Below are positions 45,711 through 62,061 of a stretch of DNA of 64,000 nucleotides, in pieces (the first letter of the stretch is position 1; every line of letters starts with the position of its first letter). Source of the stretch: Pseudomonadota bacterium (GTDB lineage: Bacteria > CALINM01); NCBI GenBank assembly GCA_026418415.1, contig JAOABK010000005.1:1943-65942 (forward strand), given 5' to 3'. The notes under the pieces were generated by a model. That model was not told where the DNA came from, made no database searches, and saw only the letters and a program-made list of their open reading frames with translations. A program made the position numbers and the translations under genes.

Positions 45711-47768
45711 TTACCTTTGAAAAATATCCCTGTCAATATAAATTTTCTGGTTTCTACCAACAAAATCAAAGAGATTATTATAATGGGAGATGTCCTGTGC
45801 TACATCTCTTGTCCAAGGAGAGAGAGAGTATAAATAAGAGGTTTTAGAATCACTTCCTTCAAACAATCTTATGGGAATAGAAACAGATATTCCCTTATCA
45901 TGATAGCCTGAATTTAGTTTATCTTTAAATACAGATGTATCTGTAAAACTATACCAACCAGTTATTACAACTCCACTTATAAATTTAGATATAGAAACTC
46001 TTGTACCAAAATCACCCGCTAAAAATCTACCTGTTTTTATATCTAAAAAGATATCTTTTTCAGGTATATTTAATCTCATATTAAAAAAGCCTGTAACATA
46101 GTAATCTTTAGCTTTTTCAGTATCTAATCTAAAAGGACTATCTATAGATCTCTTTTTTACAATGCTCGAGTTTATACCTAAAAAAACCCTTCCATCCAAA
46201 AAAGGTTTTGCAATCTCAAAATCAATCCCTGCATACTGAATTTCAAGGAAGCCAAAAGAAAGCCTTGTATATATCTCTTTTTGAAATTTATTTATTTGAT
46301 CTACCATAAATCTTCCAAGGGAGACATTTTCTTTCATGTAAAGAGGTAAATCAGTCCTCACTGGAACTGACAACGGTTCGTTCACTGTAGAAACTGTATT
46401 TATGGGATACCCTTCAATGGCAGTAATAAAAGAATTACCTTCCCATAAGTGAAAACTTGCCCACAAAGAAAGCCCAAGCCTGTACTTAAAGAAACCAGAG
46501 GGATCGTTTAAAAAGGTTTGTAGAGATGGTTTAATGCCATATCTAACTATTTTTTTATAAACACCCTCTTCTATAGAAGTTTTATAAATATCTGTTTTAA
46601 TCTCTGATAGGAGATAAAAATCCTTTTTTGTTATTTCATTTTCGAAATATTCCTTTATTATCTCTTTTTTTGAAGAAAAACCTATTAGGGGTATACCATG
46701 ATTTTTTAAAACAATTTCTACATCATCGAGTTCTATCTCTTTGATCTCATTAACAAGCCTTAAAATAACTTCGATTGCCCTTGGAGCATAAAAATATTTA
46801 TCATTTTGCATTTCTAAGCATAGTTTACTCCCCTTATAAGAGACACCAATATCACTAAATCCAATCATTTCAAGGCTTTTCGCAATCTTATCTTCAATTG
46901 ACATTTCATTTTCAATTAATTTGGGTTCTTTATCTATAATTGGTATTAAAGGTTTCCCTATTTGAAAGTTAAAATTAATATTTACCCCAAATTCTTCTCC
47001 TCTCTGATAGGTTAAATCTACTCCCATCCAGTCAAAGGGCTTGAATCTCAGTCCATAATTGAAATGTGAAGACACAGGGCTTTTAAAATGTTTTTTTTGG
47101 GCAGGATCTCTAATTTGTCTATGAAACTCAATAGGGCTGTATTCTACCATCAATGCAAATTTATTATTTGGTGAAAATTGAACACCACCAAAAAATTTTG
47201 ATTCCCTTAACCAATCGAGGGGATTTTGAATCATTTCTATTTTGATACCCTCTCCTTGTTCATTTAACTGCTTTTCTCCGAATCTGCCATTTCCAAAACC
47301 CAATGTAAAATCAAAGGGATAGATTTGCTTACTCGCAACAATATACTGCGAACTATAAAGCCTTGTACCATGGGGATCCATAATACCTATAGCAACTGAA
47401 GGTAGATACTTACTCTCGGGCACTAACTTATACTTGATATCAAAAGCTTTGTCTTTATAGTTCCCATATCCTTTCCATTTAGGGTCTTTTTTTGAAGCAG
47501 GCACATCAAGTATCTCTGTAATTCTCCCTGTAATCTCTAAATTTTTCAGAGGACTAAAAACTACATAAAAATACCTATAAGGCTCAACCTGAGAGATACC
47601 AAAGGTGTATGAATTTTGTTTTATTGTTCTTGCAGAGGGGATTTCCATAAGACCTGATGTACCTATATTAGATGGTGTATCAAAGGGCTGATCTATACAA
47701 TAAAGATTTTTACAAGAAAAGAATATAAAAAAAACGACAAGAAAAGCCTTCTTCCTTATAAAAGACAT
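45711..47768 (-). CDS. Outer-membrane beta-barrel protein, YjbH/GfcD-like (group-4-capsule-type polysaccharide translocon component)
   Basis: 685 aa; signal peptide with Cys; amphipathic beta-strand periodicity. Its size and its position immediately downstream of wza match gfcD/yjbH. Assignment rests on context and size. Confidence 0.5.
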   Translation of the reverse strand: MSFIRKKAFLVVFFIFFSCKNLYCIDQPFDTPSNIGTSGLMEIPSARTIKQNSYTFGISQVEPYRYFYVVFSPLKNLEITGRITEILDVPASKKDPKWKGYGNYKDKAFDIKYKLVPESKYLPSVAIGIMDPHGTRLYSSQYIVASKQIYPFDFTLGFGNGRFGEKQLNEQGEGIKIEMIQNPLDWLRESKFFGGVQFSPNNKFALMVEYSPIEFHRQIRDPAQKKHFKSPVSSHFNYGLRFKPFDWMGVDLTYQRGEEFGVNINFNFQIGKPLIPIIDKEPKLIENEMSIEDKIAKSLEMIGFSDIGVSYKGSKLCLEMQNDKYFYAPRAIEVILRLVNEIKEIELDDVEIVLKNHGIPLIGFSSKKEIIKEYFENEITKKDFYLLSEIKTDIYKTSIEEGVYKKIVRYGIKPSLQTFLNDPSGFFKYRLGLSLWASFHLWEGNSFITAIEGYPINTVSTVNEPLSVPVRTDLPLYMKENVSLGRFMVDQINKFQKEIYTRLSFGFLEIQYAGIDFEIAKPFLDGRVFLGINSSIVKKRSIDSPFRLDTEKAKDYYVTGFFNMRLNIPEKDIFLDIKTGRFLAGDFGTRVSISKFISGVVITGWYSFTDTSVFKDKLNSGYHDKGISVSIPIRLFEGSDSKTSYLYSLSPWTRDVAQDISHYNNLFDFVGRNQKIYIDRDIFQR

Positions 47769-47793: not shown

Positions 47794-50715
47794 TTAGAAA
47801 AGATTTATTACAACGCCAGCAGTTACTGCCATTTGCATTAGAATTTGCGTAATATCTTTAATCTCTCTTAACCAGGCTATCCTATCCAATTTTTCGGGAA
47901 CAACAATCGTATCGCCTGGCTCTATCTCTTTTTCTTCTTCACCAAAGGATGATAGTTCCCAACGTGACTTTATAGAGTTCCAATTAATCCAGCCCTTTGA
48001 AATTCTTTTAGCAGTTCCATCAACTTTTAAAATATAAACATTATCTTTGTCAGCAAACCTCGAAAATCCACCCGCTAAATTTATATAATCCATATAAACA
48101 TATTTTTCAGAGTAAATTACACTTGTTTGTGACATTACAGATCCTGTTACTGTAACAACACTACTTTTGGCTGGTATATATAAAGAATCTCCATCTTCAA
48201 GTTCAATATCATACTCACTATTCTTTAAAAGCCTTAAATGGGCAAGTTTGATACTCATTCTTCCCGTTGCTTTAAATTTTTTCAGAGAATCAATAAACCT
48301 TTTTTTACTCTCTAACTCGACCTTTTTGGCTGTTATCTCTTCTTGGGATACAGAAGTTGAGGCTGAAATAGCTCCCTCTGCTAAAAGCTCCCTCTCAAGC
48401 TTTGCTATCATTTCATCAAGAGATTTCTGTTGAAGTTCCTTTACGCTTTTTCTTGTAAATATTGCCCCTCTTAAATAAGCATTCTTTGTATAACCACCAG
48501 CTCTCTCTATTAAAGAAGAAATCTTCTCTCCCTTTTTAAGTATATATCTCCCAGGAAATAAAACCTCACCCGATATTGTTGCATACTCCTCTTTACGCCA
48601 ATCTGAAAGCCTTTTAATAAAAATTCTATCATAGGGTTTTAATAATATATTGTGTTCTCTAACATCCATAAGGGCTTTTGCAAGATTTATTTTTTTATGA
48701 TCTATCTTTACAATTTTATTATTTTCTATTACCTGTGAAGAAATCTCTGCTTCTTCAAGATAGGCAGACTCTAAAAGGTTGCCCGCTTTAAAAATAAGGT
48801 CTCTGACTGTCATACCTTCTGTATATTGATACTCTCCAGGCTTTAAAACTTCTCCACTAATGAAAACCACTTGTTTGTATTTTTCTTCATTAATAGAATG
48901 TATAATAATTCTATCTTCATCTTGTACCTTTATATTTTCATTTGGATCGCCAGATATTACCTTCTCAAGATTAAAGTATATTGTTTTATAATCTCTACTT
49001 GGAGTAACCCTTATAAGCTCGCCTTGCTTCATATAAGCCAATCTCGTAAGTCCACCTGCAAGAGCAATTACATCTCTGATAGTAGTATTTTCCATTATGG
49101 CAAACTTACCTGCTTTTCTTACTTCTCCTTGAATAGTAACAATGGGCTTATCTTTAAAGAACCATTTATTAAATACATAAATTATATCTTGGGGTTTTAG
49201 TTCAATATTATGTTCATCATTGCCACTTAAGATTGCTTTTTCTAAATTAAAGGGAACAAGTTCAGTTCTTAAATCTGGCAAAGCTAATCTTTTTATGAGG
49301 GCATAATCAAAATATGTTTCTGGTAATAGATCATTTGCATCTTTTATAATATCTTTCAGCCTCATTCCTATTTTATATTCATATTTACCCTGTTTTTTAA
49401 CATTTCCATATAGGTAGACTACATTAATATCCTTTTCTACAATATTGAAAATGTTTATTAAATCTCCATCTTCAAGTTTGAAGTTTTTTGACTTTTCAAG
49501 ATTTTTATCATCTATATCAATGATTATCTGTCTTTCATTCTTTATTATCCTCTCTACCTGAATTTGCTGAGTATAACCTGTTGGTAAAATTCCTCCAGCA
49601 AGTTCTATTAGATCATTTAAAGTATTTCCTTCTTTGAGCTCATAAATTGCTGGCCTTTTAACATTTCCAACTATTCCCACTATTGGACCAGCAACTGGTA
49701 CAAATATAACATCCCCTGCTTGTAAAATTTTATCCTGTGACTTGTCTCCTTTTAGAAGAAGGTCGTATAAATCAAATACCGCAACAACTTTATCCCTTCT
49801 TTTTAACTGAACATTCCGCATACTACCAATATTATTTGGTCCACCAGCTATAAGAAGAGCGTCTGTAATCGTAGCAAAAGAACCAATATTATATGCACCA
49901 GGCTTCCTTACGTCACCTAATACAAAGATGGGTATGCTTTTTAAATTACCCATGGTTATACTTATATTAGTACCAACTATCTCTTCCGCCCTTTTAGAAA
50001 TTAAACTTACCATCTGGTCATATGTTAATCCAGAGATCTGAATAGGACCTATATTTGGGATTGTAATGTTTCCATTTCTATCAATAACAAGGTTATACTG
50101 GGCATTTATTCTGCCCCACATTAGAATTCTTATTTCATCTCCTGGACCAACTACATATTTACCTGGAACAGGCATATCCCTTCTATCAGTTATAATTCTT
50201 GAGCCAGCAGTTTTAAAAAACTCATAACCAAAGGGCTTTAAATCTTTTTTGATTGTCTGGTATCCCTGTATATCCCTGAACCTTTTAAATAATATATCTT
50301 CCAAATCTTTTTCCATTTCTACTTTGTTTATTTCTTCCTTTTTCTTCTCCGTTTCTACTGTTTCCTTACTTTTTGATTCTAATTCTTCTTTACCCTTTAT
50401 TACTTCATCTAATGTCAACCCCTGAAATTCTGGCATATTTTTTATTGCTTCTACAGCTTCTGGTGTTAATCCCTTTTGTTGAATTATCTCCTGGGCAGAT
50501 TTTCTTTGTTCTGGACTTATATTCTTTAGTTGTTCTGGAGTAATATTTGTATTAGAAGGCTGGTTTAAATCTGGAGAAATATTTATTATCTGTAATTGAT
50601 TTGGATTTGATCCACTAAAATCTGCAGTTTGCTGTGCAAGGATATTAATACCTGAAATGAAAAAAATGAAAGAAGAGAGTAAATATATTTTCAATTTTTT
50701 AATGATATTACACAT
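47794..50715 (-). CDS. wza: Polysaccharide export protein, Wza/KpsD family, unusually large (973 aa) with multiple SLBB repeats
   Basis: Poly_export core PGDEIRILMWGRINAQYNLVIDRNGNITIPNIGPIQISGLT; several soluble-ligand-binding beta-grasp repeats; signal peptide. Confidence 0.8.
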   Translation of the reverse strand: MCNIIKKLKIYLLSSFIFFISGINILAQQTADFSGSNPNQLQIINISPDLNQPSNTNITPEQLKNISPEQRKSAQEIIQQKGLTPEAVEAIKNMPEFQGLTLDEVIKGKEELESKSKETVETEKKKEEINKVEMEKDLEDILFKRFRDIQGYQTIKKDLKPFGYEFFKTAGSRIITDRRDMPVPGKYVVGPGDEIRILMWGRINAQYNLVIDRNGNITIPNIGPIQISGLTYDQMVSLISKRAEEIVGTNISITMGNLKSIPIFVLGDVRKPGAYNIGSFATITDALLIAGGPNNIGSMRNVQLKRRDKVVAVFDLYDLLLKGDKSQDKILQAGDVIFVPVAGPIVGIVGNVKRPAIYELKEGNTLNDLIELAGGILPTGYTQQIQVERIIKNERQIIIDIDDKNLEKSKNFKLEDGDLINIFNIVEKDINVVYLYGNVKKQGKYEYKIGMRLKDIIKDANDLLPETYFDYALIKRLALPDLRTELVPFNLEKAILSGNDEHNIELKPQDIIYVFNKWFFKDKPIVTIQGEVRKAGKFAIMENTTIRDVIALAGGLTRLAYMKQGELIRVTPSRDYKTIYFNLEKVISGDPNENIKVQDEDRIIIHSINEEKYKQVVFISGEVLKPGEYQYTEGMTVRDLIFKAGNLLESAYLEEAEISSQVIENNKIVKIDHKKINLAKALMDVREHNILLKPYDRIFIKRLSDWRKEEYATISGEVLFPGRYILKKGEKISSLIERAGGYTKNAYLRGAIFTRKSVKELQQKSLDEMIAKLERELLAEGAISASTSVSQEEITAKKVELESKKRFIDSLKKFKATGRMSIKLAHLRLLKNSEYDIELEDGDSLYIPAKSSVVTVTGSVMSQTSVIYSEKYVYMDYINLAGGFSRFADKDNVYILKVDGTAKRISKGWINWNSIKSRWELSSFGEEEKEIEPGDTIVVPEKLDRIAWLREIKDITQILMQMAVTAGVVINLF

Positions 50716-51580
50716 CCAAAGCGCCCCCAGATTTTAAATTTTCAAAATATTCCTTTACAAAGGCATAAAAAATTCCAATGATTAAAGATGCCAATAAAGA
50801 GATCAAACCCATCAACGCTCTTTTAGGTTTCACCTTTTTATCAGGTGGTTTAGGTGGATCTATTACTTTAAAGGAAAAGTTTTCTTTCGCTTCCGCTAAC
50901 ATGCTTTGTTCTATTTGATTAGCTATGAGGTTGTAAATTTTAGCTCTTATAAAGGGATCCATTGTCTTATTTAGTTGTGATTCTAAATACATTTTGTTTG
51001 TTTTAGCAACTCTTTTCATCTCTTCACTCATATGCTCTTTTAATTCTTGAATTAAAAAATTTACTATATCAGCAGACATTTTAGGATCTTTGAACTGCAT
51101 GGACACCTGAACTAAGTTATCTTTTTGTTTATAATTAACTTTTAAGTTATCTTCAAAAAACCTCAATGCTTCCCAAACTTTTTCATCTTCAGTTTTATCT
51201 TTAAGATCATCTTTTTCAAAAAAAACATCAATTAGATTATACTTTTTAATTACTCTTTCCTGCAAAACTTTACTTTTTAAAAGTGCAACTACTTCTGATA
51301 ATTCAGGAGACTGGGGAGTAATAATCCCTAACTGAGAAGCAAAGGCGGTCATAAATGAAGGATTAGACTGTGTATTTGATGGGGCCAAAACCGCTGTAGC
51401 TTCATATATTGGAGTCATTAAAAAAGATATCCCAACTGTTAGAGATACAACAGCAAAGACAAATAATAGAATTTTTTTTCTATATTTTTTTAAAATGCTG
51501 TAAATTTCAATAAGATCTATCTCGTCTTCATTATATTTAATTCCTTTTATTTTTCCTATTTTTTTTGTTTCTTCATCCAT
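50708..51580 (-). CDS. wzz: Polysaccharide co-polymerase (Wzz/PCP-family chain-length determinant, no kinase domain)
   Basis: N-terminal Wzz motif IDLIEIYSILKKYRKKILLFVFAV (TM1); periplasmic coiled region; C-terminal TM2 ALMGLISLLASLIIGIF. Confidence 0.75.
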   Translation of the reverse strand: MDEETKKIGKIKGIKYNEDEIDLIEIYSILKKYRKKILLFVFAVVSLTVGISFLMTPIYEATAVLAPSNTQSNPSFMTAFASQLGIITPQSPELSEVVALLKSKVLQERVIKKYNLIDVFFEKDDLKDKTEDEKVWEALRFFEDNLKVNYKQKDNLVQVSMQFKDPKMSADIVNFLIQELKEHMSEEMKRVAKTNKMYLESQLNKTMDPFIRAKIYNLIANQIEQSMLAEAKENFSFKVIDPPKPPDKKVKPKRALMGLISLLASLIIGIFYAFVKEYFENLKSGGALDV

Positions 51581-51811: not shown

Positions 51812-52714
51812 TTACTTCCAGCTATATTTTACCATTGGAAGAGTAGCATCTCCCGCCCAATCCTGAGCAGAGCCATCATACATTTTAACATTTTTGTAAC
51901 CCAACATCTTGCTTAATACAAACCACCATCCAGAAGCAAGTCTTCCGGTATCACAATAAGTTATAATCTCTTTTTCTTTATCAGATCCCAAAACTCCCTT
52001 AGCCATAGCCTCTAATTCATCTAACATCTTAAAATTGCCATCTTTTGTGTATATCCAACCTGATGGTAAATTTACAGCACTCTCTATGTGTCCTGCTCTC
52101 GCTACAAAGTCCAGTTTAGCAACACCAAAGAAATATTCTGGCATTCTTGTATCTACTATAACACTTTTTCCAATAGCATTTTTAACTAAATTCTTATCAG
52201 CATAGATCTTCTGATTAATTTTGATTTTGAAATTTCCTGCCTTTGGTTTTTTTGTTTCAGTGGTAACAGTTTTCCCTTCCTTCGACCATTTAGTAAATCC
52301 ACCATCTAAAACTGATACTTTCTCAAAACCTGAATAATTTAAAGTCCAAGCAACTCTTGTCATGTTTACTAATTCTGTTAAGTTATCAGATAATCCTACT
52401 ATAACTACCAATGAGTTATCATTTATACCAGCATTTGTAATCAAATCCTGTAAATCATCATTTTCTGGAAGCTCATTTTTTCTTCCAGCTTTTTCAATTG
52501 CCCATGCACTATAAACTACATTAATAGAATTGGGAATATGATTAGCTTTATAATCCTCCGCTTTCCTAATATCAATAATTACAAGATTAGGATTATTAAG
52601 ATTCTTCTCTAACCAATCTGTTGATACCACAGGACTGTAATCGTTTGCCTGTGCAAAGGCAAAAAAAAGTACTACCAATAACCAGCTACCTAAAAAATTC
52701 TTCAATTTTCTCAT
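51812..52714 (-). CDS. Periplasmic tandem-rhodanese thiosulfate/polysulfide sulfurtransferase
   Basis: Signal peptide; two rhodanese domains; catalytic loop CDTGRLAS in the second domain; 300 aa. Confidence 0.8.
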   Translation of the reverse strand: MRKLKNFLGSWLLVVLFFAFAQANDYSPVVSTDWLEKNLNNPNLVIIDIRKAEDYKANHIPNSINVVYSAWAIEKAGRKNELPENDDLQDLITNAGINDNSLVVIVGLSDNLTELVNMTRVAWTLNYSGFEKVSVLDGGFTKWSKEGKTVTTETKKPKAGNFKIKINQKIYADKNLVKNAIGKSVIVDTRMPEYFFGVAKLDFVARAGHIESAVNLPSGWIYTKDGNFKMLDELEAMAKGVLGSDKEKEIITYCDTGRLASGWWFVLSKMLGYKNVKMYDGSAQDWAGDATLPMVKYSWK

Positions 52715-52729
52715 AATATTACCTCCTTT

Positions 52730-53953
52730 TTATTGTCTAAAATCAAATATTAAACCCTCATTAGCACGAGAGCCATTTGGTATTAAGTCCTCTTTCTTAA
52801 GAAAGTTAATCTTTTCAAGATGGCAGGTATCACAGTTTCTTGTTCTATCTGTTCTCTTTTTAATATTATGTGGTGCCGTATCCCAATAATTTGGTAATTT
52901 ATCAAAATTTTCCATTTTTATACCTACTGAAGCAAAGGTATCTCTTACAGTTGGAACAACTCTCAAAGTTGTTAATTGATTTTTAGCTCGTGGATTTCTT
53001 CCAAGTATAAATCCTGGTTTTGCAGAAGAGCCCTTACCTAAATGACAGTTGTAACAGTTTCTATATTCTCCTCCACTATGACAGGCATAACAGCTAACCT
53101 TATCCTCAGAGTGTATTGAATGTGCCTCTTTAGCTTTATCTGTCTTTTCTAAGCCCGACTTATGACACTTTGTACAAGTATTTTTATATTCTAATAATTT
53201 TCTCGCTGTTTGAGGCTTACCATCCCCATGGATCTCTTTTATCGAATGACAATCCATGCACATCATACCTTTTTGATAATGAATATCTGCTGAACCGCCA
53301 TAATCACCAGTAAATTCAGGATAAACTCTACCCCCATGGCAAAGAGCACAGGTCTTTGTTTCATCTTTTCTTATGAATTTATGACCTTTAATTAATCCTA
53401 AATTTACGCCTCCTATTGTTGGTGATTTTACATGACAATCTCCACAGCTGGCATGACAACTTCTACAGGATTTCTCAAAAACCTTTTCATTAAAAATCTT
53501 TTTTTCTGCTTCTGACAATCTTTCGGAGAATATATTTTTTTGACCATAAGGATAGTAATGAAGAGATAGTTTATAACTACTACCTATTTCTTTGTGGCAT
53601 TTGGCACATAAATCTATATTTTCAGAAGGTCTCTTATCTAAGTTTTTATGGGCTTCTTCTTTTTTTTCTTTCTTGTCATCACCTTTGTGACATTTTACAC
53701 ACCCTAACTTTAAATGAACATCACTATTAATTAAATTTTTGTCAACTAAATAAGCTTTATAATACTCTTCCGCCTTAACTGACGGAGGTGCTCCCGCTCA
53801 GCCCTCTCCTTCTTCACCCCCTAAATGAGGAACCTTAACTAATTTTTTTAAAGTTGCTTCATCGGTATGACAAAAAACACATGTGTTCTTTTCAGCACTT
53901 GCATAGCTAATAAAAACAAAGAAAAAGACAAATAGGATTTTTATAAATTTCAT
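52730..53953 (-). CDS. Periplasmic multihaem cytochrome c with 11 CxxCH motifs. It has a single in-frame TGA at 53798..53800, which is a candidate Sec codon or a nonsense mutation. The ORF track reports only the 3' part (52730..53518), and that part begins at an internal TTG.
   Basis: By manual translation, the ATG at 53953 has a GGGAGG RBS and a TTGACA-16-TATAAA promoter. It encodes MKFIKILFVFFFVFISYASA, then CVFCH, ...GEEGEG-TGA-AGAPPS..., CVKCH and CAKCH. The same frame continues without further stops into the annotated ORF, which carries CRSCH, CGDCH, CALCH, CMDCH, CTKCH, CYACH, CYNCH and CDTCH. Confidence 0.6.
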
Positions 53954-53982
53954 ATCTTACCTCCCTATTCTTTAATGAATAT

Positions 53983-54010
53983 TTTATAATTAAAAAAAAC
54001 ACATTGTCAA
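53983..54010 (-). promoter_or_regulatory. Sigma70-type promoter of the cytochrome-rhodanese operon (TTGACA-16-TATAAA)
   Basis: -35 at 54010..54005; -10 at 53988..53983; RBS GGGAGG at 53965..53961. Confidence 0.5.
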
Positions 54011-54226: not shown

Positions 54227-55123
54227 ATGCAAAATTTCGCTAAGCTTAAAAATAAACTGCTAAGTTTTATAGATAATTTTTGTTGTACCCTTTTAAAAAG
54301 GGATGTCAAATCATCTCAACTTTTTATAATTGGTTTGCCACGTTCTGGTGCAACTTTGGTATATCAGTATATAGTTCACAGGCTACATGTGGCTTACTTT
54401 ACTAATGGTGCAGGCAACAAGCCATATATACCTTGTCTTACAATCTTCTTACAAAAGACTTTTAGAAGACCCTATGTTTCTGATTTCAAAAGTAATTTTG
54501 GAAGAGTTGCTGGCCCCATGGCTCCTCGAGAAGCAGGCAGGATATGGGGAAAGTTCTTCTTACCTGATAAATATGAGACCTATGAAAATATCATAGAAAA
54601 AAAAAGAAAAGAGCTCTACCGTTTGGTAACCTGCATACAAAGCATTTTTGGAGATGTGCCCTTTGTTAATAAAAATGTCAGAAATTCTCTTCACATAGAT
54701 GCCTTAGCAAAAATTTTTCCTAAATCTAATTTTCTTGTTATAGAAAGGAATCTTGAAGATGTTGCTCTCTCTATACTAAGAGCAAGAAAACTAACCCATG
54801 GAGATTATAATTTATGGTTTTCTGTAAAACCAAGGAACTATGAAGAGATAAAAAATCTCTCAATACCAGAACAAATCTTTCATCAAATAAAAGATATCAG
54901 AGAATGTATTAATGAAAGTATCAAAAAATTACCAAAAGATAGAGTAAAGGTGATAAATTATGAAGACTTCTGTAAAGAACCAGAATTGGTAATCAATTTA
55001 TTTTCTAACATATTTATAAATGTTAAAGAGAAGAACCCACCTGTATCACATTTTCTCTCAAAAAAACAACACCCTAACACTACATTAGAGAAAGAGCTTA
55101 TAAAAACTATAACAAAATTATGA
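54227..55123 (+). CDS. Sulfotransferase-family protein (PAPS-dependent)
   Basis: 5'-PSB loop IIGLPRSGATL; 298 aa. Confidence 0.7.
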   Translation: MQNFAKLKNKLLSFIDNFCCTLLKRDVKSSQLFIIGLPRSGATLVYQYIVHRLHVAYFTNGAGNKPYIPCLTIFLQKTFRRPYVSDFKSNFGRVAGPMAPREAGRIWGKFFLPDKYETYENIIEKKRKELYRLVTCIQSIFGDVPFVNKNVRNSLHIDALAKIFPKSNFLVIERNLEDVALSILRARKLTHGDYNLWFSVKPRNYEEIKNLSIPEQIFHQIKDIRECINESIKKLPKDRVKVINYEDFCKEPELVINLFSNIFINVKEKNPPVSHFLSKKQHPNTTLEKELIKTITKL

Positions 55124-55843
55124 AACAATCTTTTTTTTGATAATTTGGTAAAATCTTCTTAAAACATAAAATAAATAGTGCATATCACCGAAATATTTTT
55201 TAATTAGAACCCCCCTATCAATTTTAAAAGCCTCATCTTCTCTTTTAGAACTTAAGCCATCATCATTATAGATTGATATAACTCTATTTATATATTTTAT
55301 TTTGATTTGCTTATTTCCGAAACATCTCATATTAAATTCATAATCAGCCCAAAGAGGATATTTTAAGTTGAACAAACCTAATCTATCAAAAATTGATCTT
55401 CTATAAAAAATAGCCTGATGACATATGTTTCTAAAATGCATCTTAATTTTATAAAATTTACCATCGTAGATTTTTTTAGTTTGCTTAAAAATTACATTAC
55501 CATATACTAAATCAAAATTGCTGTTTTCTACTGAATTGAAAACATCTTCGAGCACTCTATTGTCATAAAATAGATCATCACTACCCATAAAATATATCCA
55601 CTCACTATCAGATTGTAAAATGCCCTTATTTAAAGCATCGTAGATTCCTGAGTCAGGCTCACTGATAAAGTATTTAATTTTTTTTGAATTTCTCTTGATA
55701 ATATCACATGTCGCATCTTTTGAACATCCATCAATTACAATAATCTCATAGTCTTTCCAGGTTTGGTTATATATACTATCTAAAGTATCTTGAATTGTAC
55801 TCTCTGAATTATAAGTAGCAATTATAATATTAAGTTTACTCAT
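55118..55843 (-). CDS. Family-2 glycosyltransferase
   Basis: IIIATYNSESTIQDTLDSIYNQTWKDYEIIVIDGCSKD GT-A N-terminus with DxD. Confidence 0.85.
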   Translation of the reverse strand: MSKLNIIIATYNSESTIQDTLDSIYNQTWKDYEIIVIDGCSKDATCDIIKRNSKKIKYFISEPDSGIYDALNKGILQSDSEWIYFMGSDDLFYDNRVLEDVFNSVENSNFDLVYGNVIFKQTKKIYDGKFYKIKMHFRNICHQAIFYRRSIFDRLGLFNLKYPLWADYEFNMRCFGNKQIKIKYINRVISIYNDDGLSSKREDEAFKIDRGVLIKKYFGDMHYLFYVLRRFYQIIKKKIVS

Positions 55844-57162
55844 CTTTTAAAAAATGGCACGTAATATGTTACAATGCCAAATTTCCTTTTTACATAGAAT
55901 AGGGAAACTAAATTCCAAAAAACCATACTTATTGCAAATCCTAAAGAAGCACCATCTATTCCTAAAAGAGGCACTAAAATAAGACAAAGTATAAAATTAA
56001 TTAACGTTGCTAATAGGTATATATTTCTAAAAACTATCTGATTGCCAGTCATTGTCAACAAATATCCTACGCTACCACAAAAGGCATTTACAAATTGCCC
56101 TAAAGATATAATAATCAAAGATCTATATCCTTCAACAAACTCTTTACCAAAGAGCCCCATAAAAAACTTTGGTATTATTATAAATAGAGCAAGAAGAGGT
56201 GCTGAACTCCAGAAGTTTAATTTTGCTGATAACAGAGCGGTCTTATTTAGGTCTTCCATTTTTCTATTCCAATAAAATTCTGCAATTTTTGGTGCTACTA
56301 TCGAATTTATTGAAACAAGAAAAAAACTTGTAATTGTAGCAATTTTATAGGCGATATTGAAAACTCCAACACTTTTAGTATCAGTAAAATATGCTAAAGT
56401 AAAAACAGGGGTATAGCTTGATACTAAGCTCGCAACTGAAACATAAAACATTGGCAAAGAAACCAGGAATAATTGTTTTGTGTTAATGTTATTTTTATCA
56501 TTTAAATTTAGCTTAGATTTATTTACTTTACTCATAATAAAGTATGTTGAAATTAGGAATGTAATAAAAAGACCTATAAAATTTGTTAAAATTGGCAAAA
56601 TTATATTAAATTCAATAAATAGCAGAATAATAAAAAATAAAGCTACATTAACGAAATTAATTAAAAACATTCTAAAAATTTCACTTTCTTTTATAAACAG
56701 CATGCCCCTTATAGCCTCTACATTTAAACTGTTTAAGGCTAAAAATACTACTCCTAAAGCAACGAGATTAAAAATCATTGGATTATAAAAATCTCTAAAT
56801 AATATTTCGGATAAAAAGGTCTTAGAAAAAAAAATAATAGAAGAAACAACAAATCCTGAAAACAAGATCCAGGAAAACATTTTTCTGTAAATATAAAAAA
56901 AAGCTAATCTATCCTTACAATGTTCCCCTGCAAATCTTAGAATTGATTGTTCAAATCCAAGAGTAGCTAAGACAGAAGCTAAAGTCATCAAAGAATTGGC
57001 TACATTAATAATACCAACTGTTTTAGCACCAAAATTTCTCGAAATATAAAAAATAAAAAAATAGCTTAAAAGAATAGAAAATGTTTTTATAATAAAAGTT
57101 GTTATAGAATTTAATAAAACCTCTTTCCCAATAGATTCTTTTACAAATATTTTTTCTAACAT
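55840..57162 (-). CDS. wzx: Wzx-type polysaccharide flippase (MOP superfamily)
   Basis: 440 aa; about 12-14 TM helices; polysaccharide-biosynthesis-protein architecture. Confidence 0.75.
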   Translation of the reverse strand: MLEKIFVKESIGKEVLLNSITTFIIKTFSILLSYFFIFYISRNFGAKTVGIINVANSLMTLASVLATLGFEQSILRFAGEHCKDRLAFFYIYRKMFSWILFSGFVVSSIIFFSKTFLSEILFRDFYNPMIFNLVALGVVFLALNSLNVEAIRGMLFIKESEIFRMFLINFVNVALFFIILLFIEFNIILPILTNFIGLFITFLISTYFIMSKVNKSKLNLNDKNNINTKQLFLVSLPMFYVSVASLVSSYTPVFTLAYFTDTKSVGVFNIAYKIATITSFFLVSINSIVAPKIAEFYWNRKMEDLNKTALLSAKLNFWSSAPLLALFIIIPKFFMGLFGKEFVEGYRSLIIISLGQFVNAFCGSVGYLLTMTGNQIVFRNIYLLATLINFILCLILVPLLGIDGASLGFAISMVFWNLVSLFYVKRKFGIVTYYVPFFKR

Positions 57163-57966
57163 TTAGATATAACCAAAAGCATTCATAGTATTTCCAAATC
57201 TATCTTTAAGTTTTCTAATATCATTTTCTGTAAAATAATTTAACCATTCATCAATCCTCCCAGAACGAATGAAGGGAATATCTTTTTTTGTATTTTTTAA
57301 CACCTTAGTCTCATCAGACAGTCTTTTTTCATTCTCTTTCATGTTTTCAAATTTTGACTTTTCAATCGCTTTTAGAAATTTATCGTTCGAGACACTTAAC
57401 CTCAAAAATCTAATCACCTTTCTAACTTCCTCTTCAATGTTATTTGATAAATCCTCGTATTTTATTAAAAGGAAATTTTCTAAATCTTGATTTTTCATAA
57501 AGACCCAGCTTTTAACATTTTCTTCCCAAGTACCATAATTATCCAAAGTCCCATCTAAAAATCTTTCAAGAAAATCTTGAAAACTAATTTTTTCGTCTAA
57601 AACATTAAACTTTTTTAAATGAAAGTAATAAGAAACTGCTACACTTCTTGGATCTCTAACAATATAAATAACTTTTTTATATTTAGGATGATAGTATTCA
57701 TGACTTTTAAGTATTCTTGGTCTTGGATATTTTTTTAAAATTTCATTAGGGACTACATATATATCTGGGATTAACTCCTCCATGTTTTTAAAATTAAAGT
57801 CATCATAAATAAGATTACCTATTATAAATCTCATCCATGTATTGCCACTTTTAGGATAAGAAACAATAAATATATCGTCATCAAAATAATCAATATCCCT
57901 ACCCATTTTTTTCCTATTAATATAATCTACAAGAAACATGTTTATTCTCTTTTTAAACCAGTTCAT
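57163..57966 (-). CDS. Sulfotransferase (Sulfotransfer_1 domain)
   Basis: 5'-PSB motif SYPKSGNTW; 3'-PB motif IYIVRDPRSVAVSYY. Confidence 0.8.
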   Translation of the reverse strand: MNWFKKRINMFLVDYINRKKMGRDIDYFDDDIFIVSYPKSGNTWMRFIIGNLIYDDFNFKNMEELIPDIYVVPNEILKKYPRPRILKSHEYYHPKYKKVIYIVRDPRSVAVSYYFHLKKFNVLDEKISFQDFLERFLDGTLDNYGTWEENVKSWVFMKNQDLENFLLIKYEDLSNNIEEEVRKVIRFLRLSVSNDKFLKAIEKSKFENMKENEKRLSDETKVLKNTKKDIPFIRSGRIDEWLNYFTENDIRKLKDRFGNTMNAFGYI

Positions 57967-58892
57967 AAATCACTTGCCCCTTTGTTTTTTAAAATTATTA
58001 ACAGGTGATCTTTTACATTAAACAAATCTGGCACGGTCTTCTTTTCTAATGTTTCTTTATTCCCATTTCTTAAATAATAGTAAAATCTTTGACTTATAAG
58101 AAAAATTAAATTTTGCAAAAAATTTCTTAAAATAACCTTAACTCTTAAATCTATATTATGAGAAAATTTTTTTATATATAAAATTTCAAAATCTAATTTA
58201 CTACATACAAAATTAATCCATTTCAGGTTAATAAAGCTAATATGTTCTATGATTGAACAATAATAGTATCGGTTTTTGTATATTCTTTTCCATAAAAAAT
58301 ATTCTGAATCTCCTGTTGATAAAAGTATAATCCCCTTTGGCTTAAGAATTTCCTTTAAACTTAATAAGAGTGAAAGAGGGTCACTCACATGTTCAATTAC
58401 ATCAAAGAGAGTGATTACATCAAATCTATTATCTATTCCTCTAATATTCAAAAAATTATTTTCTATAATTTTAATTCCCCTTTTCTCTGCCAACTCAGCA
58501 GCATAGGGATTTAACTCAATGCCATATCTATTGTAATACCCATTTAAAGAATCCAAAAACTTCCCATCCCAACAACCCAAATCAAGAATTGATGCATCTT
58601 TTCTTATATTTTCGAATATAAAGTTCTTAGCAATAATCCAGTCAGCCCTATTTTCATAAACATTATCCCAATGAGTGGGATTTAAATTTTTATATAAATC
58701 TTCCAAAATGCTATAGTCCAATTCTGACCACACAAAACATAGATTACAAGAAAGACATCTAAAAAGAAACCTATCTTTACGAGACTCACAATCTAACTTT
58801 ATATCACCAAGATAATAACTCGTGGGTATTAAGCCTAAATTTTTCAGGTTAATACTTTTACAACAGGGACATTGATATTTGACTATTGCCAT
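57963..58892 (-). CDS. Class I SAM-dependent methyltransferase with N-terminal zinc ribbon (sugar C-/O-methyltransferase-like)
   Basis: CPCC...CLSC zinc ribbon; motif I ILDLGCWDGKF. Confidence 0.7.
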   Translation of the reverse strand: MAIVKYQCPCCKSINLKNLGLIPTSYYLGDIKLDCESRKDRFLFRCLSCNLCFVWSELDYSILEDLYKNLNPTHWDNVYENRADWIIAKNFIFENIRKDASILDLGCWDGKFLDSLNGYYNRYGIELNPYAAELAEKRGIKIIENNFLNIRGIDNRFDVITLFDVIEHVSDPLSLLLSLKEILKPKGIILLSTGDSEYFLWKRIYKNRYYYCSIIEHISFINLKWINFVCSKLDFEILYIKKFSHNIDLRVKVILRNFLQNLIFLISQRFYYYLRNGNKETLEKKTVPDLFNVKDHLLIILKNKGASDL

Positions 58893-58897
58893 AAATT

Positions 58898-60001
58898 TTA
58901 TAGTATATAATTTTCATAATAAGTGCTTTTTATACCATCCCTCAATCCAATTCTATATTGCCAGCCCTTTTTTAATAATCTACTTACATCAAGTAACTTT
59001 CTTGGTGCTCCATCTGGCTTAGAAATATCCCACTTTATTTCTCCTCTAAATCCCACAATCTCCCTAATAATAGACGCTAATTCTTTAATCTTTAAATCTT
59101 CTCCAGTACCTATATTTATAAATTCTCCAACATCTTCAAAATCATATTTTTCCATAATAAATACACAAGCATCCGCAAGATCATCGACATGCAAAAATTC
59201 CCTATATGGCTCACCACTACCCCACAAAATAACAATTACTGAACCATCCTCCTTTATAATACCGTTATCTTTTAAAACATTTAAAATCTTTTGCTCTCCT
59301 TCATTACCATTCACACCATCTATTGGATTTTTGTTAAGATCCTTTCTTATGCTATCCCAATCATCATTTTCAAGACATTTAGCAAGATGAAATTTTCTTA
59401 TCAAAGCAGGTAGAACATGAGAATTTTTAAGATCATAATTATCGTTAGGCCCATAAAGATTTGTTGGCATCACCGATACAAAGTTTGTATTATACTGTTC
59501 ATTGTAGTATCTGCAAAGTTTAATAGCGCAAATTTTAGCAATTGCATAGGGCTCATTGGTAGGTTCAAGAGAACCAGTCAGTAAATATTCTTCTTTCATA
59601 GGCTGTGGACAATTTTTTGGATAGATACATGATGAACCAAGATTTAGCAATTTATTTACACCATATTTATAGGAAGCATGAATTATATTTGTAGAAATCA
59701 TTATATTATCGTAAATAAATTCCCCTTTATATGTATTATTAGCAAGAATACCTCCTACTTTTGCTGCACTTAAAAAAACATATTTTGGTTTCTCCAGTTT
59801 AAAAAATTCTTCTACATCTTTTTGGATTCTTAGGTCTAAATTAACAAAATTAACACTCCCACTCTCTTTTGGAGGCCTCTTATTAAAGTTTGATACGATA
59901 TTTGTATAGCCCTTTTTCTTTAGATCTCGAATTATTGCACTTCCTACCATACCAGTACCACCGGCCACAAAAATTTTATCATCTATCATCATAATCTTCA
60001 C
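58898..60001 (-). CDS. fcl: GDP-L-fucose synthase (GDP-4-keto-6-deoxy-D-mannose 3,5-epimerase/4-reductase), with an internal insertion of about 45 aa
   Basis: IFVAGGTGMVGSAI Rossmann motif; SDR catalytic Y..K (YAIAK); 367 aa versus about 320 typical. Confidence 0.85.
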   Translation of the reverse strand: MKIMMIDDKIFVAGGTGMVGSAIIRDLKKKGYTNIVSNFNKRPPKESGSVNFVNLDLRIQKDVEEFFKLEKPKYVFLSAAKVGGILANNTYKGEFIYDNIMISTNIIHASYKYGVNKLLNLGSSCIYPKNCPQPMKEEYLLTGSLEPTNEPYAIAKICAIKLCRYYNEQYNTNFVSVMPTNLYGPNDNYDLKNSHVLPALIRKFHLAKCLENDDWDSIRKDLNKNPIDGVNGNEGEQKILNVLKDNGIIKEDGSVIVILWGSGEPYREFLHVDDLADACVFIMEKYDFEDVGEFINIGTGEDLKIKELASIIREIVGFRGEIKWDISKPDGAPRKLLDVSRLLKKGWQYRIGLRDGIKSTYYENYIL

Positions 60002-61192
60002 CTATATGTCACATCTATTTCTTATTTCAAACCCAGCACTATGAAGTGTAAAATCCTTATAAGCTCTCACCAAATCTCCTTCTACCATATCCTTTATCAA
60101 ATCCTTAATTGTTAGTTTAGGCTCCCAACCGAGCTTTGTTTTTGCTTTACTATAATCTCCAATTAGCAAGTCAACTTCTGTAGGTCTAAAATATTTAGGA
60201 TCCACATTTATCAAATCTTTCCCCAACAGGGATTTAACATTCTTTTCAATTTTCGAATAGTCAATGCATAATTTTTGGAGTTTATTAAAAAGTATGTCTT
60301 CATCAATCTTTTTTATTATGCCCTTTTCTTCTAAGCCCTTACCATCAAATTCAACACTAATCCCCAACTCGCCAAATACTAATCTAATAAACTCCCTAAC
60401 TTCTGTTGTTTTACCAGTGGCCAAAATGTAATCATCGGGCTTTTCTTGTTGCAACATCAGCCACATACCAACAACATAATCCTTCGCATGCCCCCAATCT
60501 CTTTTTGCATCTAAATTGCCAATATATATTTTTTTATCCAACCCTAAAAGAATTCTCGAAGCACCACGAGTTATCTTCCTTGTAACAAATGTTTCTCCTC
60601 TTATTGGAGATTCATGGTTAAAAAGTATACCATTGCAAGCAAACACATTATATGCTTCTCTATAATTTACAGTAATCCAATAGGCGTATAATTTAGCAAC
60701 ACCATAGGGACTTCTCGGATAAAATGGAGTTGTTTCTCTCTGTGGTATTTCTAAAGCCTTGCCGAATAATTCAGATGTAGATGCCTGATAAATTTTAACC
60801 CTATCAGTTAGCCCAAGCAACCTAACCGCTTCTAATATCCTTAAAGTTCCTAAACCATCGCAGTTTGCTGTATATTCTGGTTGTTCAAAACTAACAGCAA
60901 CATGGGATTGAGCTCCTAAGTTATAAATCTCATCGGGCTGAATCTTCTGAATTAGTCTTGTAATATTTAGGCTATCGGTTAAATCTCCATAATGTAGAAA
61001 AAAGCCCGTCTTTTCTTCGTGAGGATCTTTATATAAGTGATCTATTCTTTCTGTATTAAATAGGGATGTTCTTCTTTTTATGCCATGAACCTCATATCCC
61101 TTAGATAGCAAAAGTTCTGCAAGATAAGCACCATCTTGACCTGTAACGCCAGTTATAAGAGCTTTTTTCATAGAATCCCCATATAAATTCAA
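60002..61192 (-). CDS. gmd: GDP-mannose 4,6-dehydratase (start probably at 61171, MKKALITG)
   Basis: [31 protein letters not shown]; [10 protein letters not shown] catalytic YxxxK. Confidence 0.9.
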
Positions 61193-62061
61193 AATAAAAT
61201 ATTGTATTTATCACTATTAATATGCCTTTTTATATATCTTTCAATTGCATTTTTCCAGTTAGGAATTTCAATATCAAGAATCTTAGATATTTTCTTATTG
61301 CTCATCGCTGAAAAATATGGCCTTTGTGCTGGAACATTGAAAAATGAAGTAGAAACAGGGAGTATGAGATTCTCCTTCCCTAAACATTCTAAAAAGAATC
61401 TTGCCACTTCATATCTTGATGCATAACCGCTATTTGTTAAATGAAATATTCCTCTTAAGCCTTTATCTATAGCTCTCCTTGTTACTTTTACGATGTCTTC
61501 AGTATATGTTGGTATAGAAACCTGATCACTTACTATTTTAATGACCCTATTTCTCTGAGACCACTCCCTTAATTTATGCAGAAAGTTTTGCTTTCCTTCG
61601 CCAAAAACCCAGCTTACTCTAAAAATAAGATAATTATCCGTTTCTTCCAATATACCTTTCTCTCCCCCGAGCTTACTTTTCCCATAAACAGAAATAGGGT
61701 TAGGTTCATCTTCTTCTGTGTAAAAATCCTCTTTTCTGCCATCAAATACATAATCTGTACTAAAATGAACAATCAAGGAACCTATCTTTTTTGCTAAATA
61801 AGCTAAGTTCTTAGGACCTTGAGAATTTATCTTAAATGCTAATTCACCTTCTGTCTCCGCACCATCAACATTATTATAGGCAGCACAATTTATTATTACA
61901 TTTGGTTTAAAGTTTGACACCAATTCTTCCAATGACTGAAAATCAGATATATCCAGTTTCTCCTTTGATAAAGCTAACACTTCTATTGATGAATTATTTT
62001 CGAGATTTTTTCTAAACTCTGTAGCTAACTGACCATTTGCACCAGTTATTAGATACCTCAT
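61189..62061 (-). CDS. rfbD: dTDP-4-dehydrorhamnose reductase
   Basis: [13 protein letters not shown] Rossmann motif; SDR YGKSK. Confidence 0.85.

Follow-up and report, generated by a model that had tools for sequence, protein, structure and literature searches.

The closest described system to the gene analysed here is MccSep/ExtKL of Geobacter sulfurreducens (GSU2937-2936), a multihaem cytochrome c selenoprotein that acts as a polysulfide reductase (Sci Adv 2026, PMC13510729). MccSep was the first multihaem selenoenzyme, characterised only in 2025-26 and put forward as a catalyst of a new class for cleaving S-S bonds. It reduces both polysulfide and selenite, and thus sets a precedent for a multihaem enzyme that uses selenocysteine (Sec) (PMC13510729). 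Sec forms annotated in GenBank have also been recorded for the octahaem tetrathionate reductase (OTR) family, TIGR04315 (2026 AEM review).

We analysed a cytochrome gene interrupted by an in-frame TGA within a 64-kb stretch of bacterial DNA (64,000 nucleotides, hereafter the window). From its sequence and that of its homologues we conclude, with a probability of about 0.85, that 53953..52730 on the minus strand is one gene for a secreted 11-haem cytochrome c, whose UGA-52 is predicted to be decoded as Sec by means of a SECIS hairpin. The family to which it belongs is widespread and apparently undescribed: the literature on bacterial selenoproteins, including the deep-Sep and BSepDB papers, yielded MccSep/ExtKL and general reviews, and no description of this cytochrome family. 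Likewise, none of the NCBIfam selenoprotein models matched the cytochrome at threshold. Membership of MccSep/ExtKL (NF040886) was rejected, as that model was unmatched and the protein carries its predicted Sec at residue 52, has 11 CxxCH motifs and lacks a further conserved Cys. The model of OTR, with eight haems and a cut-off of 375 bits, was not matched by the window protein either; one distant relative scored 30 bits with it. The GSU2204-family CXXCH selenoproteins (NF041027) were discarded in the same way, neither NF041027 nor the linked NF041028 being matched at threshold.

A cytochrome frame with a single TGA

Translation of the minus strand from the ATG at 53953 to the TAA at 52732..52730 gave 407 codons with the TGA as the sole interruption (Table 1), which bears out the proposal, made earlier in a sequence-only reading, of a single frame with one TGA at codon 52. 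An ORF lister instead gives two halves, a 51-aa ORF (53798..53953) and a 262-aa ORF (52730..53518). The translation agrees with the earlier view that the latter merely opens at an internal TTG and that the ATG at 53953 is the true start; no in-frame ATG, GTG or TTG occurs in the 94 codons between TGA-52 and the TTG at 53518. The signal peptide and first haem motif (CVFCH) that had been placed before the TGA are both present in the translation, and the count of CxxCH motifs is 11, as had been claimed. A GGGAGG ribosome binding site does precede the ATG, though at a spacing of 6 nt and not the 7 nt first given. The promoter-like TTGACA-16-TATAAA was read directly at the position described; a consensus scan prefers TTGACA-18-TAAAAT at the same site, with 11/12 matches, the best score in the region.

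Table 1. Predicted features of the cytochrome-rhodanese locus (positions in the window)
Feature	Position	Strand	Description
Complete predicted selenoprotein gene	52730..53953	minus	407 codons including UGA-52, then TAA; periplasmic 11-haem c-type cytochrome
UGA codon 52, predicted selenocysteine	53798..53800	minus	motif GEG-U-AGAPP
Promoter-like TTGACA (54010..54005)-16 nt-TATAAA (53988..53983)	53983..54010	minus	putative; consensus match
Shine-Dalgarno GGGAGG	53960..53965	minus	6 nt 5' of the cytochrome ATG
Signal peptide, residues 1-20, MKFIKILFVFFFVFISYASA	53894..53953	minus	...SYASA/EK; putative cleavage after ASA
Haem motif 1, CVFCH, residues 25-29	53867..53881	minus	upstream of UGA; kept in all full-length reconstructions
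Haem motifs 2-11, CxxCH at residues 85, 116, 163, 170, 202, 232, 260, 288, 300, 374	52820..53701	minus	family-invariant
Predicted bacterial SECIS hairpin, +15..+32	53769..53786	minus	begins 11 nt after UGA
SECIS parts: UCCGUC; loop AGUUAA; GGCGGA	53786..53781; 53780..53775; 53774..53769	minus	G22 and U23 invariant
Two-domain periplasmic rhodanese, 300 aa	51812..52714	minus	signal peptide; loop CDTGR; Pfam PF00581, 123 bits

Readthrough of the TGA is needed for any product, because the signal peptide lies solely before it and the attachment of c-type haem is periplasmic. The codon is not reassigned in this genome: TGA is a normal stop in the window, ending full-length nadB and other genes, and the cytochrome provides the one same-frame ORF pair split by TGA in the whole 64 kb. 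Genetic code tables 4 and 25 were therefore rejected.

The sequence-only reading had drawn attention to a GC island around the TGA and put it down to an RNA fold. The island is real, with 58% G+C in 53761..53812 versus 34% in the gene and 32% in the window. Its origin is mixed, since it is partly made of Gly, Ala and Pro codons, while the choice of the rare CCG, GCG and AAG codons is RNA-driven.

At the domain level the protein matches Pfam Cytochrome_C7 (PF14522, 46.9 bits, cut-off 24.8) and Cytochrom_c3_2 (PF14537, 41.4 bits, cut-off 25), which is a generic assignment. A hydrophobic leader precedes the first CxxCH at the N-terminus of almost every homologue reconstructed at full length, and residues 51-60 form one of the best conserved blocks of the cytochrome. 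Outside the haem motifs, the invariant ligand candidates for the eleven haems are nine His and one Met (M230), leaving one haem with no obvious sixth ligand; no conserved Cys lies outside the CxxCH motifs in the family alignment. P0001, the closest database entry of full length, has an AlphaFold2 model with a mean pLDDT of 75.9, in which residues 44-58 and 169-209 fall below 50, so the placement of the Sec loop relative to the haems is not readable from the model. Foldseek of this model against the PDB returned no significant match, and sequence and profile searches of the PDB gave matches at the level of CxxCH alone.

A predicted SECIS hairpin 3' of the UGA

Bacterial Sec insertion depends in the published bSECIS model on a hairpin with a loop of 3-9 nt, a stem of 4-16 bp and a minimum free energy (MFE) of -7.5 kcal/mol or below (PMC13188914, Fig. 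2A), with, further, a G within the first two nucleotides of the loop, then G or U, and 16-37 nt from UGA to loop (PMC13188914). When the model was applied 3' of the UGA, the hairpin at 53786..53769 agreed with all four published criteria (6-nt loop, 6 bp, G then U, 17 nt and -8.7 kcal/mol). It is the MFE structure of +4..+46, at -8.7 kcal/mol alone and -10.5 kcal/mol in context, and the MFE is -7.5 kcal/mol or lower in 78/78 homologues.

The pattern of substitution supports this structure. Across the alignment, 80.5% of hairpin cells are paired, versus 29-57% (maximum 56.5%) in controls with slid partner columns; compensatory changes occur in three pairs (C-G to U-A, G-C to U-A and C-G to G-C), and the covariation score exceeds that of 500/500 shuffles. 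At the third codon positions +15, +18, +27 and +30, 73-77 of the 77 sequences share one base, while +6, +9 and +12 vary freely. Of the 54 four-fold sites in the gene, the two least variable (ranks 1 and 2) are those of P56 and P57. Rare codons are kept in this stretch, namely CCG (4% of Pro), GCG (9.5% of Ala) and AAG (28% of Lys), against a genome GC3 of 24%. Part of the nucleotide conservation reflects the protein, since the hairpin overlaps the conserved peptide AGAPPxV. A distant relative (L085, SEGEG-TGA-AKAMAQLEPY) has a different stem, AUGGCUC/GAGCCAU, with the hairpin position and the AGUUA loop the same.

The expectation of a SECIS placed right after the UGA thus held for the element and failed for the fold that had been drawn for it. 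That fold, GCUGA/UCAGU around GGAG-CAC-CUCC, was rejected: none of the 77 distinct homologous sequences has a compensatory change in it, and most of them break two of its pairs. An 81-nt fold that includes sequence upstream of the UGA is unremarkable (z = -0.84), and was set aside because the relevant stretch is that downstream of a ribosome sitting on the UGA.

The codon in homologous genes and the competing explanations

Our searches found 607 homologues, and species-representative genomes contributed 286 loci. At E <= 1e-3 the wider superfamily numbers 1,055 representatives. We compared the codon in 79 homologous loci from species-representative genomes (77 distinct sequences, 78 full-length reconstructions). 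Codon 52 is TGA in 78 of the 79 and CGA in one; TAA and TAG do not occur. The TGA-bearing loci span Desulfobacterota-type MAGs, Nitrospirota and Spirochaetota. Coding constraint is evident on both sides of the codon, the first CxxCH lying upstream in every reconstruction and the motif GEG-TGA-AG[AP]PP being kept. Most database homologues have been called as N-terminally truncated proteins of ~346 aa, the expected outcome as gene callers stop at a Sec codon.

Cys occupies the aligned column in distant full-length relatives with 8-13 haems, in the contexts GEG-C-GG, GGG-C-GG and ES-C-GG (P0184, P0177, P0145, P0133, P0134, P0169, P0152, P0130 and others). The alignment of orthologues that had been proposed as a check for Sec or Cys at this position thus returned TGA in 78/79 loci and Cys in distant homologues. 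Among the close relatives checked (>50% identity) none has Cys at codon 52. A worry that Cys homologues do not exist was dropped, given their presence in more distant clades and the rarity of genuine Arg, Ala and Trp variants.

Where the close family departs from TGA at codon 52, which is rare, the residue is Arg, Ala, Ser, Tyr or Pro. For a Sec that acts in catalysis, such replacements in place of Cys are unusual. One Ala variant retains the hairpin, and the lone CGA (Arg) locus lacks the otherwise invariant G+31. A more distant relative, P0161, has Trp at the Sec column through a TGG codon. Full-length database entries show W, R, S, A, Y and P at this codon. The W entries are P0001 and P0007; the 'W' of P0001 is TGA read under another code, P0001 being the translation of locus L001 with TGA as W.

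No sel gene was found among the larger ORFs of the 64-kb window, nor any tRNA-Sec or other selenoprotein gene within it; tRNA-Met is the sole tRNA there. In four spirochaete genomes (L027, L033, L041 and L049), the cytochrome, the rhodanese, tRNA-SeC, selA and selB follow one another in this order; their selA scores 404 bits with TIGR00474 and their selB 225 bits with TIGR00475. Selenoprotein genes are known in the lineages that carry the cytochrome, and MccSep homologues occur mainly in Desulfobacterota and Nitrospirota (PMC13510729).

Three other explanations of the TGA were weighed against Sec insertion. It might be a nonsense mutation or a sequencing error that splits an intact cytochrome gene into a 51-aa stub and a dead fragment. 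From one sequence alone this would be reasonable, as a TGA in a low-GC genome is the expected product of a G-to-A or C-to-T error and gene callers do split the gene. However, the same TGA stands in 78/79 homologous loci of different phyla, the frame, signal peptide and haem motif 1 are kept upstream of it and ten haem motifs downstream, and the window holds no second TGA-split ORF. Judged by the conservation of TGA across genomes, a fresh pseudogene or error is effectively refuted. The preference for a single read-through gene over a fresh pseudogene was upheld by this conservation together with the constraint on both sides, the covarying hairpin, the Cys homologues and the adjacent selC-selA-selB of the four spirochaetes. 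A pair of genes, in which the TGA is the real stop of a small secreted mono-haem peptide and the remainder ('cytochrome c3 family protein', ~346 aa) is translated from an internal start, is scarcely credible. Many homologues do have an ATG (MYKG...) 10-13 codons past the TGA, and annotation pipelines use it, but no conserved ribosome binding site precedes this Met, and the stretch after the TGA that such a start would leave untranslated (AGAPPxVxAEE) belongs to the best conserved of the protein. In the window itself the first in-frame start lies so far downstream, at the TTG, that haems 2 and 3 would be lost. The downstream product would moreover have no signal peptide, even though its haems must be attached in the periplasm.

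Readthrough with an amino acid other than Sec, whether by a near-cognate tRNA (Trp, Cys or Arg), by a leaky stop stimulated by the hairpin or by lineage-specific reassignment, we consider very improbable. In its favour, the rare variants Trp (TGG), Arg (CGA) and Ser are each one mutation from TGA, and the Sec trait of the host genome is assumed. On the other side, TGA ends full-length genes such as nadB, with no other interrupted gene in the window; the position of the hairpin, the size of its loop and the G-U loop signature are those of the SelB-binding type of SECIS; selC-selA-selB lie directly after the gene pair in four genomes; the distant homologues carry Cys, the usual counterpart of Sec; and the carrier lineages are already known for selenoprotein genes. 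Under Sec insertion, the ribosome would pause at UGA-52, the hairpin would recruit SelB with Sec-tRNA(Sec), and translation would continue through the remaining haem motifs.

Predicted function and comparison with known systems

The cytochrome is followed by a gene for a rhodanese whose ribosome binding site, AAGGAGG, lies inside the 15-nt gap after the cytochrome stop, and the two are predicted to be co-transcribed partners. The C-terminal domain of the rhodanese carries the active-site loop YCDTGRLAS, and catalytic activity is predicted. Its NCBIfam matches, to 3-mercaptopyruvate sulfurtransferase and ExtH, are below threshold (82.9 bits for ExtH, cut-off 200). A rhodanese gene lies directly downstream of the cytochrome in 71/79 loci; it also adjoins the Cys-type and distant Sec-type relatives, in one case with genes for a membrane cytochrome b and a regulator of the ArsR type as well.

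From this gene neighbourhood, and by analogy, we tentatively propose that the cytochrome could work in the periplasm as a selenoenzyme, reducing the sulfane sulfur or polysulfide (or selenium) that the rhodanese delivers, a role to which we give somewhat less than an even chance. The active-site Cys of the rhodanese would hold the sulfane sulfur, or selenium, in persulfide or polysulfide form. Sec52 would attack this S-S (or S-Se) bond through its selenolate, and electrons from the 11-haem chain would reduce the Se-S adduct with release of sulfide. If true, this would be a second, unrelated multihaem selenoenzyme for sulfur or selenium reduction, alongside MccSep.

It is somewhat unlikely, though worth weighing seriously, that the protein is a selenoprotein with another role, either an electron wire or a thiosulfate or sulfide oxidase like TsdA or SoxAX, with Sec as an axial ligand or redox switch. 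The count of eleven haems against nine invariant non-motif His and M230, with one haem short of an obvious sixth ligand, would suit such a protein, as would the lack of extra conserved Cys in the family. Rhodaneses serve oxidative sulfur pathways too. Haem enzymes with His/Cys ligation act on thiosulfate (PMC13510729, discussion). Against an oxidative role, most carriers are strict anaerobes such as syntrophs, Geobacter/Pelobacter and anaerobic spirochaetes; the quinol-type cytochrome b in the operon of one relative is compatible with either direction of electron flow.

A more specific and speculative form of the reductase proposal, which we think quite unlikely, has Sec52 as the sixth axial ligand of one haem, or directly above it. 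The protein would then have a natural His/selenocysteine-ligated haem and be the terminal reductase of an unrecognised route, in which the haem-selenium site would be supplied by the periplasmic rhodanese with sulfur as persulfide or polysulfide (or with selenium). The route might be respiratory or detoxifying, in syntrophs, Geobacter relatives and anaerobic spirochaetes. This fits the ligand count (11 haems, 9 invariant extra His, 1 invariant Met and 1 Sec), and it fits the observations that the close family almost never replaces Sec and that the Sec machinery travels with the gene pair in spirochaetes.

At present the members of this family, with 286 loci among species-representative genomes and over 600 protein clusters, are annotated as N-terminally truncated 'cytochrome c3 family' proteins without a signal peptide. 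Reading the product as a secreted 11-haem selenoprotein would correct these annotations and add one family to the bacterial selenoproteome. Haem-plus-selenium chemistry may be common in anaerobic sediments, digesters and groundwater. In spirochaetes, the neighbouring selC-selA-selB offer a handle on whether a single selenoprotein can drive the gain or retention of the Sec-decoding trait, and, as cultured carriers of the cytochrome family exist, Geobacter sp. OR-1 (locus L026) among them, the predictions are directly testable.

The predicted hairpin resembles the fdhF-type SECIS of E. coli and the bSECISearch model in lying within the coding sequence 3' of the UGA and in having a 6-nt loop with G-U at loop positions 2-3; it differs in its short stem (a 6-bp core) with no bulged U, and binding of SelB is a prediction. 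The minimal spacer of the E. coli SECIS was reportedly put at 11 nt by Liu and colleagues in 1998, equal to the spacer here.

Among cytochromes, OTR of Shewanella (SO4144, PDB 1sp3) is likewise a periplasmic multihaem enzyme acting on S-S-bonded sulfur compounds, but has 8 haems versus 11; its catalytic haem is said, in work of Mowat and colleagues from 2004, to be Lys-ligated. A secreted rhodanese that serves as a sulfur carrier beside a periplasmic reductase is familiar from Wolinella, where Sud accompanies PsrABC. In Geobacter, too, the gene for a secreted rhodanese with an active-site Cys loop, ExtH, lies next to that for a periplasmic reductase. In contrast to these Sud/ExtH-type carriers, the rhodanese described here has two domains, and its partner is a haem selenoprotein and not a molybdoenzyme. 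The GSU2204 family (NF041027) shares with the cytochrome the CXXCH motif, an in-frame UGA and an occurrence in Geobacter-type bacteria (PMC13188914).

MccSep remains the nearest parallel. Both proteins are periplasmic c-type multihaem cytochromes in which a single UGA encodes Sec, by prediction in the present case, and is followed directly by a stem-loop. Both have been annotated as two ORFs, and MccSep, found mainly in Desulfobacterota and Nitrospirota, likewise has a rhodanese-like protein, ExtH, in its gene cluster. There is, however, no detectable sequence similarity between them: besides the unmatched NF040886, the sequence and profile searches of the PDB returned no entry named MccSep or ExtKL. 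MccSep has 5 haems, not 11, and its Sec lies near the C-terminus (U325, ...HSIPDGUPTPNR), whereas U52 (GEGUAGAPP) is N-terminal. The Sec of MccSep is paired with the haem-ligating Cys239, in contrast to the family here, which has no conserved Cys outside CxxCH. By analogy, MccSep is a plausible functional counterpart for Sec-dependent reduction of S-S bonds or selenium. A family unrelated to MccSep, with a fixed Sec, no partner Cys and a tie to a rhodanese, suggests that haem-plus-selenium chemistry on sulfur and selenium compounds arose more than once.

The split cytochrome gene and its relatives

Translated through its TGA, the gene encodes a cytochrome with an N-terminal signal peptide (MKFIKILFVFFFVFISYASA|EK) and 11 CxxCH motifs, one upstream of the TGA and 10 downstream. 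A mechanical ORF list returned only two halves, a 51-aa ORF and a 262-aa ORF starting at an internal TTG, and no in-frame ATG, GTG or TTG lies between the TGA and that TTG. GGGAGG occupies the Shine-Dalgarno position 6 nt upstream of the ATG; farther upstream, TTGACA-16-TATAAA was the top promoter-like site of the region in a consensus scan. The G+C content is 58% around the TGA, versus 34% for the gene and 32% for the window. Translation and composition thus bore out, in all material points, the sequence-only reading of a single TGA-interrupted frame with 11 haems and a GC island. The cytochrome halves are the only TGA-split ORF pair in the 64 kb, and TGA terminates full-length genes of the window such as nadB, indicating that this genome uses the standard genetic code.

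Coordinates of the features in the window
Feature	Position	Strand	Remark
Cytochrome reading frame	ATG 53953 to TAA 52732..52730	minus	407 codons, by translation
In-frame TGA	53800..53798	minus	codon 52; sole interruption of the frame
Putative SECIS hairpin	53786..53769	minus	+15..+20 UCCGUC pairs with +27..+32 GGCGGA; loop AGUUAA
Rhodanese partner	52714..51812	minus	secreted, two-domain, CDTGR active-site loop; downstream of cytochrome
Unmatched ORF	6386..7579	plus	NCBIfam search
Unmatched ORF	12452..13876	minus	NCBIfam search
Unmatched ORF	45711..47768	minus	NCBIfam search
Unmatched ORF	55840..57966	minus	NCBIfam search

A protein search found 607 homologues, most of them ~346 aa long and starting 10-13 residues past the TGA position, the signature of gene callers halting at a recoded stop. 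Scanning one genome per species gave 286 loci, and sequences were taken for 80. The site codon could be located in 79 of these and is TGA in 78, CGA in one and TAA or TAG in none. Reconstructed genes have their first CxxCH ahead of the TGA, nearly always behind a hydrophobic leader; the motif around the UGA is [E/G]EG-TGA-AG[AP]PP[SP]V, and residues 51-60 belong to the most conserved parts of the cytochrome. A pseudogene or sequencing error, which would leave just the two halves, is excluded by this retention of TGA and by coding conservation on both sides; the gene is very probably read through, as proposed from the sequence alone.

Some database entries have Trp at the Sec position. One of them, P0001, is identical to the translation of L001:5992-7215 with TGA read as W and is an artefact of genetic code 4 calling of a low-GC contig; the other, P0007, is possibly the same. 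Genuine sense variants are rare and none is Cys: CGA (Arg) at L020:6157-6159, GCA (Ala) at L081:1325-1327 (gene 1142-2401) and TGG (Trp) in L086 (P0161). Such non-Cys replacement in the close family is unusual for a selenoprotein family.

Carriers include Syntrophales/Syntrophorhabdaceae/Smithella-type MAGs, Geobacter, Pelobacter, Nitrospirota and Spirochaetota (Rectinemataceae, Treponemataceae). The window organism itself seems to represent a deep, uncultured lineage of low G+C (32%): relatives at 75-92% identity come from metagenomes only, and the nearest relatives of its Ffh (35126..36463) outside its own clade are delta-proteobacterial and ~60% identical.

A conserved hairpin downstream of the UGA

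The SECIS fold drawn in the sequence-only reading did not survive comparison: 77 distinct sequences contain no compensatory change in it, and most of them cannot form two of its pairs. A different hairpin, at +15..+32 (U of UGA as +1), takes its place. Here 80.5% of cells are paired; sliding the partner columns lowers this to 29-57%. Compensatory changes occur in three pairs (C-G to U-A, G-C to U-A and C-G to G-C), and the covariation score lies above all 500 shuffles. Third positions within the stem are near-fixed (+15 T in 73/77, +18 G in 69/77, +27 G in 76/77, +30 G in 77/77), those outside it (+6, +9, +12) vary freely in the 77 sequences, and of 54 conserved four-fold-degenerate codons in the gene, those of the stem prolines P56 and P57 rank lowest in third-position entropy. 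In a genome with a GC3 of 24%, the stem retains exactly the rare codons CCG (4% of Pro), GCG (9.5% of Ala) and AAG (28% of Lys).

In folds of the sequence 3' of the UGA, the minimum-energy structure is this hairpin (-8.7 kcal/mol by itself, -10.5 in context), and the energy is <= -7.5 kcal/mol in 78/78 homologues. The bacterial SECIS consensus asks for a stem of 4-16 bp, a loop of 3-9 nt with a G in its first two positions and then G or U, a UGA-to-loop distance of 16-37 nt and <= -7.5 kcal/mol (PMC13188914); the window hairpin, with a distance of 17 nt, agrees in every respect. Two natural 'experiments' also agree with the SECIS reading. L020, alone among the genome loci in having CGA instead of TGA, no longer has G+31, which is invariant elsewhere, and pair C16-G31 is broken; the hairpin is intact in the GCA variant. 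In L085 (<50% identity; SEGEG-TGA-AKAMAQLEPY) the peptide and stem differ (AUGGCUC/GAGCCAU), and the hairpin keeps the same position and AGUUA loop.

Selenocysteine as the probable inserted residue

Among 1.8 billion cluster representatives, a profile search picked out 1,055 relatives. Distant full-length ones, with 8-13 haems, carry Cys in the UGA-aligned column (e.g. GEG-C-GG, GGG-C-GG, ES-C-GG), which by alignment is the classical Sec/Cys pair. In four spirochaete genomes (L027, 6001-11650; L033; L041; L049) tRNA-SeC (e.g. L027:8204-8294), selA (TIGR00474, 404 bits) and selB (TIGR00475, 225 bits) come after the cytochrome-rhodanese pair, all on one strand. This cluster may hold the whole Sec-insertion machinery with one selenoprotein, and is conceivably a mobile 'Sec trait plus client' cassette. 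The 64-kb window contains no detected sel genes and, as tRNAs, tRNA-Met only. The distant Cys homologues and the adjacent selC-selA-selB favour Sec over other readthrough; we put the probability that UGA-52 is decoded as selenocysteine, with hairpin +15..+32 as the SECIS, at about 0.85-0.9, supporting the recoding proposal with its SECIS corrected.

Among distant relatives, L085:522-2481 (P0135) has the stub-TGA-body architecture and a downstream rhodanese, and many other representatives likewise begin at profile position ~70-90. Several subfamilies, all of them annotated as truncated, probably use Sec.

Partner genes, possible function and known selenoproteins

In 71/79 loci the gene after the cytochrome encodes a rhodanese, and Cys-type and distant Sec-type relatives have one alongside too. 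The operon L083:220-3135 (Cys-type P0145, 11 haems) encodes an ArsR/HTH_5 regulator, the cytochrome, a Ni_hydr_CYTB membrane cytochrome b and a single-domain rhodanese; it resembles a full quinol-to-periplasm module whose regulator may be a persulfide-sensing repressor. Candidate electron donors are a 665-aa multihaem cytochrome adjoining the pair in 26/79 loci (e.g. L018:8225-10222, L081:2414-4411), a small c3-type cytochrome (~177 aa) upstream in 16 loci and, in some loci, a flavocytochrome-c-like FAD protein. No obvious electron-donor gene lies beside the window pair, which sits within an exopolysaccharide cluster (47794..51580 and 54227..62061), with a 973-aa polysaccharide export protein and a Wzz-like chain-length determinant downstream, and a divergently transcribed sulfotransferase, glycosyltransferases and a methyltransferase upstream. 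Elsewhere in the window, ORFs of 397, 474 and 685 aa had no NCBIfam match at E <= 1e-10, and ORFs of 440 and 267 aa none at E <= 1e-3.

MccSep, a 5-haem selenoprotein, reduces polysulfide and selenite via a Sec nucleophile (PMC13510729). By analogy, the cytochrome may be a sulfur/selenium reductase: the rhodanese would offer sulfane sulfur or selenium to Sec52 for nucleophilic attack, and sulfide would be released with electrons delivered along the haem chain. An oxidative role, or one with Sec as a haem ligand, is a somewhat less probable alternative. For its 11 haems the family has nine invariant His outside the motifs and one invariant Met, with no conserved extra Cys.

Recoding follows the standard bacterial mechanism. 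The family appears, from these comparisons, to be new and undescribed as a selenoprotein: a 2026 review lists only ExtKL, the GSU2204 family and OTR as cytochrome-type selenoproteins, our literature search found no description beyond that list, and no NCBIfam model, including ExtKL NF040886, GSU2204 NF041027 and OTR TIGR04315, reached its cut-off. The family is widespread, has cultured carriers and is systematically mis-annotated, NCBI labelling the truncated forms 'cytochrome c3 family protein'. It would constitute a second, independent multihaem selenoenzyme lineage, linked to Sec machinery in spirochaetes. Unlike MccSep, it has no partner Cys; the two share no detectable sequence similarity and differ in haem number (5 versus 11), Sec position and motif.
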